A stretch of DNA of 64,000 bases from a virus (taxonomy: Duplodnaviria > Caudoviricetes): IMG/VR virus record IMGVR_UViG_3300028175_000001; one strand, given 5' to 3'. The position numbers were made by a program, and so were the translations under genes. How positions within the stretch are numbered: the first letter of the stretch is position 1; each line of letters opens with the position of its first letter. The notes under the pieces are model-generated. The model did not search any database, was not told where the DNA came from, and was given only the letters and a program-made list of their open reading frames with translations. Positions 11,320 to 11,675 of this stretch are shown piece by piece.

Positions 11320-11509
11320 CCCTTAATTTGTGTAATTGATTGTTTCTGTTTCAAGGCACAATCATAAGCCCACTCCAACACTAAGCGGCCAATGCTACCT
11401 GTGCGGAAAAATAATCGTCATTGTTTGCGATTAAGTTAAATGACATTTTACATCTGTCAAGATGGTCTCCTCTGCATAATCACATTCAATCGAATTCCCG
11501 AACACCCCC
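11320..11509 (-). ncRNA. ssrA: tmRNA coding piece of a permuted two-piece gene; tag ANNDDYFSAQVALAA* at 11428..11381
   Basis: 5' GGGGGTGTTCGGGAATTCGAT at 11509; resume codon GCA; tag ends in ALAA-stop; 3' boundary approximate. Confidence 0.85.
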
Positions 11510-11513
11510 AACA

Positions 11514-11606
11514 TTAAGTCATCAAAGTCCAGTCTAGAACAAAATATAATCCCATCATAATCGATATTATAAAAACCCACAATAACAAAGTAGGATTATC
11601 ATTCAT
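11514..11606 (-). CDS. 30-aa hydrophobic peptide inside the tmRNA intervening segment
   Basis: MNDNPTLLLWVFIISIMMGLYFVLDWTLMT*; no strong SD visible. Confidence 0.4.
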   Translation of the reverse strand: MNDNPTLLLWVFIISIMMGLYFVLDWTLMT

Positions 11607-11615
11607 ATGGCTCAT

Positions 11616-11675
11616 TGGTGGAGGTGGGCGGAGTCGAACCGCCGTCTTAAATGCTACTCTACAGTATCATCAACT
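11616..11675 (-). ncRNA. ssrA: tmRNA acceptor piece (T-arm plus acceptor 3' strand and CCA)
   Basis: GAC-GGCGG-TTCGACT-CCGCC-CACCTCC-A-CCA; pairs with GGGGGTG, giving a G3:U70 wobble and A73 (Ala identity); 5' boundary approximate. Confidence 0.9.

Follow-up and report, generated by a model that had tools for sequence, protein, structure and literature searches.

A circularly permuted tmRNA gene of an uncultured marine T4-like myophage with a predicted membrane peptide gene in its spacer

The stretch of viral DNA analyzed here (the window) is 64,000 nucleotides long. Its long ORFs are all on the minus strand and its GC content is approximately 31%. Searches against PHROG and Pfam identify a T4-type gene set that includes the major head protein, scaffold, DNA polymerase, and clamp loader. 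Further T4-like genes are gp41/gp61 (DnaB-like helicase and primase) and gp46/47 (SbcCD-like nuclease). The window also encodes a UvsW-type helicase, a CobS-like ATPase, ThyX, and a class II ribonucleotide reductase. The capsid protein is 63.8% identical to that of Pelagibacter phage HTVC008M, 62.2% to that of Methylophilales phage Melnitz, and 60.6% to that of Pelagibacter phage Mosig. Judged by the T4-type genes and the similarity of the capsid to these three phages, the window therefore belongs to a marine T4-like myophage, still uncultured, that is kin to the pelagimyophages. No DNA match was found among GenBank phages, either to 10 kb of the window (megablast) or to the tmRNA (blastn). 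The stretch 10600-12700 recurs with zero differences in contigs from marine metagenomes and metatranscriptomes dated 2012-2025. These come from at least 14 studies, and the uncultured phage is therefore widespread.

An earlier note, made from the letters of the window, had described a phage-encoded, circularly permuted (two-piece) tmRNA gene at this locus. The T4-like genes and the nearest capsid, that of HTVC008M, bear out the assignment to a phage, and every element of the permuted tmRNA was found to lie, to the base, where the earlier note had placed it on the minus strand. The features of the locus, in the order of transcription, are as follows.

11680-12081, minus strand: ORF133, the upstream neighbor, function unassigned; its stop is 2 nt ahead of the tmRNA gene
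11616-11677, minus strand: acceptor piece with the P2 3' strands, T-arm, acceptor 3' strand, A73, and CCA; 5' end approximate
11643-11627, minus strand: T-arm, GGCGG/TTCGACT/CCGCC
11626-11620, minus strand: acceptor 3' strand, CACCTCC
11619, minus strand: A73, followed by the encoded CCA at 11618-11616, minus strand
11510-11615, minus strand: intervening segment (IVS) of 106 nt, missing from the mature RNA under the two-piece model
11514-11615, minus strand: mini-ORF in the IVS, 33 codons from an ATG that abuts the CCA; TAA at 11516-11514, 4 nt before G1
11337-11509, minus strand: coding piece with the acceptor 5' strand, P2 5' strands, PK1, tag ORF, and PK2; 3' end approximate
11509-11503, minus strand: acceptor 5' strand GGGGGTG (G1 = 11509), which re-forms the 7-bp acceptor stem with G3:U70
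11489-11482 with 11654-11647, minus strand: P2a, TTGAATGT with GCATTTAA
11476-11472 with 11664-11660, minus strand: P2b, TGCAG with CTGTA
11464-11451 and 11459-11441, minus strand: potential PK1, CAUC/GAUG and UGACA/UGUCA, respectively
11381-11428, minus strand: tag reading frame, GCA resume codon at 11428, 15 codons, TAG at 11383-11381
11337-11371, minus strand: post-tag pseudoknot (PK2-like), hairpin GGGC 11371-11368 with GCCU 11357-11354
10181-11316, minus strand: Fe-S assembly cassette that begins the region downstream of the tmRNA gene, with two A-type carriers (PF01521) and one NifU/IscU-like gene
8068-8310, minus strand: ribosomal protein S21 homologue of 80 aa (PHROG family match, E 7e-6)

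The gene is thus read from the acceptor (3') piece at 11677-11616 through the intervening segment at 11615-11510 to the coding (5') piece, which starts at 11509. ARAGORN calls a permuted tmRNA at 11290-11708 on the minus strand with an identical tag, ANNDDYFSAQVALAA. The covariance model RF04321 (tmRNA_permuted) gives 88.7 bits against a gathering score of 47. These were the searches that the earlier note had proposed as checks. The RF04321 match extends over 11381-11677 (minus strand, full model 1-213, E 1e-15) and is the sole Rfam match within the 64-kb window. Sigma-70-like promoter matches do not exceed those in shuffled sequence, and TATAAATA does not occur in the vicinity of the tmRNA gene. 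No convincing promoter or terminator was detected for it. The S21 homologue is a second translation-related gene of this phage besides the tmRNA. Close relatives have an extra small gene that separates the tmRNA from the first A-type Fe-S carrier.

The unconstrained minimum free energy (MFE) fold of the 356-nt precursor yields the T-arm, the acceptor stem, P2a, and P2b. In the PK2-like pseudoknot the hairpin loop UGAUUGU (11364-11358) pairs with ACAAUCA (11343-11337), and an invariant AACAGAA lies between them. The MFE fold also contains a 9-bp helix that joins the outer ends, GUAGUUGAU (11677-11669) with 11340-11332. This helix was dropped because only 50% of its cells are paired in homologues and because it overlaps a covarying PK2 strand.

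To place the gene among its relatives, 145 loci were gathered from IMG/VR with ORF133 (upstream) and the A-type carrier (downstream) as anchors. The alignment used below (A1) holds 20 distinct homologues plus the locus L099, 21 in total, with 52-78% identity to the window. Pair types were counted for each proposed helix over these 21 homologues. Every cell (100%) of the acceptor stem and of the T-arm is paired, and 4 of 7 and 4 of 5 pairs, respectively, have changed on both sides. P2a is paired in 96% of cells (6/8 pairs changed on both sides), P2b in 95% (3/5), and the PK2 loop-tail stem in 88% (4/7). The G3:U70 pair is retained in all 21. PK1 can form and is paired in 83-85% of cells, with an alignment that is unreliable in the distant relatives; its pairs are invariant among the close relatives and for this reason it gains no support from covariation. 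The covariation across the 21 homologues rules out a chance origin of the tmRNA fold. In alignment columns 77-104 most close relatives (L200-L217) have the T-loop TGCGATT in place of TTCGAxT, and the stem ATCGG/CCGAT covaries. Two loci, L247 and L248, end in ACTG and not in ACCA, and their CCA would therefore need post-transcriptional addition.

The mRNA-like part shows its own form of conservation. The tag, ANNDDYFSAQVALAA, has 15 residues and ends in ALAA. The 15-codon frame from GCA is open in 21 of the 21 homologues, and TAG, TAA, and TGA all serve as stops. Among the tag codons the third position is variable in 15 of 15, and the alternatives are synonymous in 23 cases and non-synonymous in 19. 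The C-terminus is preserved as A-[LMI]-[AV]-A. The body of the tag varies between clade members while both ends are kept. The open frame and the coding-like pattern of substitution indicate that the mRNA-like part evolves as translated sequence. The claim of a complete two-piece tmRNA is thus upheld by ARAGORN, RF04321, the covariation, and the open tag frame, which agree.

The gene is not present in all relatives of the phage. IMG/VR holds 65 loci with ORF133, and 53 of these are close relatives (at least 73% amino-acid identity). In 18 of the 53 the tmRNA adjoins ORF133 and in 5 it lies 1-2.6 kb beyond. Approximately 23 have no tmRNA in the flank, and 7 loci are too short to judge. The absence from about 23 of the 53 indicates that the gene is dispensable.

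No smpB was found in the window, as the earlier note had stated; two bacterial SmpB sequences served as tblastn queries and as the basis of an HMM, and the best E was about 0.3. Neither the complete genomes of HTVC008M, Mosig, and Melnitz nor five partial IMG/VR records of the window clade gave a match to smpB (PF01668). The tmRNA must therefore depend on the SmpB of the host. We propose that a single precursor would fold over the spacer and build the tRNA-like domain. Host RNase P would cleave at G1 (11509) and host 3' processing would trim to the CCA (11616), which would leave two base-paired pieces. The host AlaRS would alanylate the tmRNA via G3:U70, and host SmpB and EF-Tu would bring it to stalled ribosomes. 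Translation would restart at the GCA (11428) and append ANNDDYFSAQVALAA, and the ALAA end would send the product to ClpXP-type proteolysis of the host. The likely benefit would be more capacity for ribosome rescue and the recycling of amino acids, in a small host that has few ribosomes and accumulates truncated mRNAs during infection. On the comparative evidence the locus is probably a functional, circularly permuted ssrA gene that selection maintains in this uncultured myophage.

The same dependence on the host leaves room for another role. Lacking a phage smpB, the RNA must compete for the SmpB of the host, and it could be a decoy that binds host SmpB or ribosomes. Such a decoy would damp trans-translation, or divert it to a phage-chosen tag that alters the fate of the protein. 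As an inhibitor-like precedent, PMC4131195 cites the tmRNA of mycobacteriophage DS6A, which consists of the tRNA-like domain only. The differing tag bodies of the clade members, with their ends kept, are also compatible with a tag of the phage's choosing. A pure decoy would have no need of a maintained mRNA-like part, however, and a potential PK1, the resume codon, the 15-codon frame, the A-L-A-A end, and the stop persist in all 21 homologues alongside numerous synonymous changes. We regard a decoy as improbable and favor a tmRNA that works in trans-translation.

How the phage gene is related to the bacterial two-piece tmRNAs was approached with the lineage-specific Rfam models and a tree. The prototype of the alphaproteobacterial two-piece tmRNA is that of Caulobacter (Keiler et al. 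2000, as cited in PMC9004378). The window resembles this type in the upstream position of the acceptor piece, in having one post-tag pseudoknot and a potential PK1, and in a tag that begins with AN and ends with AA. None of the lineage-specific models is passed by the window. The best is beta_tmRNA (RF01850), with 46.9 bits against a gathering score of 84, and the score with alpha_tmRNA (RF01849, gathering score 50) is below threshold and under the 46.9 bits of beta. The long-IVS relatives behave like the window (40-47 bits with beta_tmRNA). Unlike the window, short-IVS members of the same clade pass alpha_tmRNA (L099 with 69.4 bits and L225 with 52), and the shortfall of the window may therefore be due to the 106-nt insertion. 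HTVC008M, Mosig, and Melnitz share the AACAGAA motif, as do 8 of the 20 bacterial permuted tmRNAs that were sampled. The motif shared with bacteria and the alpha_tmRNA scores of the short-IVS members make a separate permutation event in the phage, an alternative raised in the earlier note, unlikely, and common descent with the bacterial two-piece tmRNAs is favored.

The tree was built from the mature tmRNA parts of the window clade, the three isolates, other viral rows, and 16 sampled bacterial genes (Pseudomonadota). The window clade forms a monophyletic group, with support of 97/81 and in 99% of bootstrap trees. It is distinct from the three isolates and from a clade of 15 rows that holds 15 of the 16 bacterial genes. 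The remaining one, from a Rhodocyclaceae genome (L367), falls with the viral rows in the part that the tree does not resolve, and the deep nodes are unresolved. The permutation had also been proposed as a hint to the host lineage. This hint is only partly usable, and the host itself is not readable from the tmRNA. Melnitz has an alpha-type tmRNA and an OM43 host, so that the type of tmRNA does not fix the host (PMC9004378). An exact 28-nt match of the T-arm and acceptor end was considered as a host marker and rejected. It also occurs in Deinococcus, Xanthomonadales, Rhodocyclaceae, and others, and this recurrence indicates that it is convergent and uninformative on the host.

In another reading the locus is a passive remnant of host DNA, either a fragment of an attachment site or an ssrA captured from the host that does nothing for the phage. 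Genes for tmRNA are frequent integration sites and leave fragments in prophages (PMC9004378). When IMG/VR was scanned with a pattern for the conserved 3' end, 120 loci matched; 45 of them have a permuted tmRNA by ARAGORN, and many of the matches have no complete tmRNA. In the window, however, both pieces are complete and the genome that carries them is of the lytic T4-like type. The conservation is backed by covariation over many diverged phage contigs, and these form their own clade apart from the sampled bacteria (97/81). An origin as a functionless remnant is exceedingly unlikely and already close to refuted. The covariation and the coding-like tag show that such phage tmRNAs are selected as complete tmRNAs and are not captured debris.

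Two-piece tmRNAs as such have already been published for this group of phages. Buchholz et al. 2022 describe two-piece ssrA in Melnitz, Mosig, and pelagimyophage contigs (PMC9004378). ARAGORN predicted 53 two-piece tmRNAs in 18,146 phage genomes, and 50 of the 53 are marine or aquatic (PMC9004378). Within the Melnitz cluster 17 of 47 contigs have a permuted tmRNA, and the gene was termed common but not defining (PMC9004378). Myophages that infect SAR11 or OM43 are known carriers of two-piece tmRNAs. The accessory status of the tmRNA, present in only part of the group, is thus shared by Melnitz, Mosig, the pelagimyophages, and the window clade. Melnitz, Mosig, and HTVC008M resemble the phage described here in being Kyanoviridae-like T4-type marine myophages with a capsid 60-64% identical to that of the window. 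They also share the RF04321 match, the permuted order, the AACAGAA/PK2 region, and the lack of smpB. The RF04321 scores are 113.4 bits for Melnitz, 93.6 for Mosig, and 90.6 for HTVC008M, and all three pass alpha_tmRNA. The window differs from these isolates in that its tmRNA is in a separate clade of the tree, in a tag of 15 residues versus 9-14, and in an IVS that is predicted to encode a hydrophobic peptide. By blastp, the neighbors of the tmRNA in the window bear no similarity to the proteins that flank it in HTVC008M, Mosig, or Melnitz. Melnitz and the window also differ in that the ssrA locus of the window has no riboswitch; the glutamine riboswitch model (RF01739) gave no match in 10900-12100 at E up to 1. 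As a positive control, the same model finds the Melnitz riboswitch at L125:1886-1934 with 52.8 bits, just downstream of the alpha_tmRNA match (1461-1878) and outside the mature tmRNA.

One-piece phage tmRNAs are known from the mycobacteriophage Bxz1 group and from Bacillus phage G (PMC4131195). These phages likewise bring their own ssrA without smpB. They differ in the unpermuted, standard order of the gene and belong to other phage families with other hosts. The gene described here is one more well-validated case of a phage-borne two-piece tmRNA, and it comes from a lineage that is widespread although uncultured. It supports the view that ribosome rescue is a resource topped up by such phages without their own SmpB.

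The spacer of the window deserves separate attention. Among 62 distinct viral permuted tmRNAs the IVS varies from 3 to 150 nt, and the 106 nt of the window are therefore no outlier. In 18 loci of bacterial permuted genes with locatable pieces the IVS is 4-115 nt, measured to the nearest pairing 5' strand; these spacers are mostly 26-57 nt, form hairpins, and contain no ORF that fills them. The members of the window clade with a long IVS (96-107 nt) have an ATG ORF of 27-33 codons in 16 of 16 cases. These ORFs cover 81-96% of the spacer and stop 1-9 nt ahead of G1 in all 16. A Shine-Dalgarno sequence (AGGA or GGAG) lies directly past the CCA in 15 of the 16; the mini-ORF of the window has only a weak one (GAG). 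For the window, the ATG at 11606 is the more likely counterpart of the start in the homologues and would give 30 aa. The predicted peptide of the window has one hydrophobic span of approximately 18 residues, and the spacer peptides as a class are hydrophobic (mean Kyte-Doolittle 0.9-2.6). They fall into about six alignable versions; as a rule a Trp lies close to the beginning of the span, and the span itself contains a Gly and then an aromatic residue.

Several observations bear on whether these frames are genes. In dinucleotide-preserving shuffles of each spacer the observed ORF was reached in 0.35-3.9% of trials. Within versions the variable sites are distributed over codon positions 1, 2, and 3 as 11/2/12, so that the second position accounts for 2 of 25. 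The window peptide matches the version of L227/L229 with E 3e-4 in the local database. No copy of the spacer peptide was found outside tmRNA spacers in any collected locus, and Pfam has no match for it. In the Atlas the closest clusters consist of small membrane proteins of bacteria (scores of at most 0.84), which provides a lead only. One and the same version of the peptide can accompany different tags and sit in mature RNAs that have diverged (L207, L206, L290), which indicates recombination. From this pattern the IVS looks like it carries a conserved gene for a membrane peptide of approximately 30 aa. Of four database proteins matched by a profile of the spacer peptide, two (P0003 and P0004) have lost the stop and their frame enters the 5' end of the tmRNA; these are either real variants or assembly errors.

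Messenger RNAs that are freed by tRNA-type processing are familiar from the tRNA punctuation of mitochondria and from bacterial tRNA operons that include protein genes. There, as is predicted for the window, a coding segment lies between sites of RNase P cleavage and of tRNA 3'-end processing on one precursor. The arrangement in the window differs in that one tRNA-like domain closes a loop around the putative coding segment, which separates the 3' half of this domain from the 5' half. The excised spacer may double as a mini-mRNA for a single-span membrane peptide of approximately 30 aa. In the folded precursor the ribosome-binding site of the mini-ORF would be set against the acceptor stem, and processing would probably free its translation. 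The locus would then be a gene with three products, the acceptor RNA, the coding RNA, and a near-leaderless mini-mRNA for the single-span peptide, with a ribosome-binding site masked until processing. We give this extended reading an even chance.

The comparison with tRNA punctuation could be taken further, so that the tRNA-like fold would be chiefly a processing signal that frees the mini-mRNA and the tmRNA function would be vestigial. This would account for a mini-ORF that spans the IVS from just past the CCA to 1-9 nt before G1 in all long-IVS members. It would also fit the occurrence of differing peptide versions in similar tmRNAs and of the same version in divergent ones (L207, L290). We nevertheless consider a vestigial tmRNA very unlikely, since L099, L244, and L247 have spacers of 17-35 nt with no ORF and retain an intact tmRNA with an open tag frame. 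L225 likewise has a short spacer. The compensatory changes moreover reach P2 and PK2, well past what a cleavage signal needs. A working tmRNA that may also release a coding spacer is the reading that we prefer.

A full-text search of the literature returned no paper on a coding spacer in a permuted tmRNA gene, and the protein-coding spacer proposed here appears to go beyond published descriptions. It would mean that a part of the precursor presumed to be discarded in permuted tmRNAs can be protein-coding. If the peptide is made, the locus provides a compact case of RNA processing coupled to gene expression and points to a class of small phage membrane proteins overlooked by gene callers. A profile search of 1.84 billion representative proteins returned only four matches, all of one peptide version, and it is this scarcity in the database that suggests the oversight.

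The evidence from RNA consists of assembled contigs of marine metatranscriptomes, which show neither ends nor levels. Many marine DNA runs, and several metatranscriptomes from 2016-2025, contain 100% of the words sampled from the stretch. Four low-depth RNA libraries have contigs on the tmRNA locus (jointly 11251-11687) and none on the upstream segment 11692-12043. X18 and X26 each have a contig that terminates at 11499 or 11503, at most 10 nt from G1, although the ends of assembled contigs are not diagnostic. Three contigs, from X19, X24, and X25, are continuous over the junction of the spacer and G1. The contigs fit a transcribed locus with precursor and processed forms; carry-over of DNA is possible and the fit is suggestive only.

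ORFs are also found in the spacers of other viral permuted tmRNAs. The IMG/VR locus L023 (2281-2457) and the matching L091 belong to another clade, with spacers of 133-134 nt and the tags ANDNVAFALAA and ANDNVAFAGYALAA. Their spacer has an ATG ORF with an AGAGGA ribosome-binding site for a Cys-rich peptide (CxC ... CCGxC), and the frame overlaps the coding piece by 51-54 nt. The two ORFs differ at codon positions 1, 2, and 3 in 2/2/8 cases, with 7 synonymous and 5 non-synonymous codons. The ORF of L023 was considered as a BFD-like iron-sulfur domain and this was rejected, as Pfam gives no match. In Melnitz the spacer of approximately 142 nt has an unannotated ORF of 54 codons for a basic peptide, with GGAG upstream, and it also runs into the coding piece. 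That the Cys-rich ORF of L023/L091 and the basic ORF of Melnitz are unrelated suggests that phages repeatedly exploit the tmRNA spacer as a niche for small genes. The Melnitz ORF corresponds to L125:1584-1748 (MZ577097.1, about 46096-46260), where GenBank annotates the tmRNA alone.
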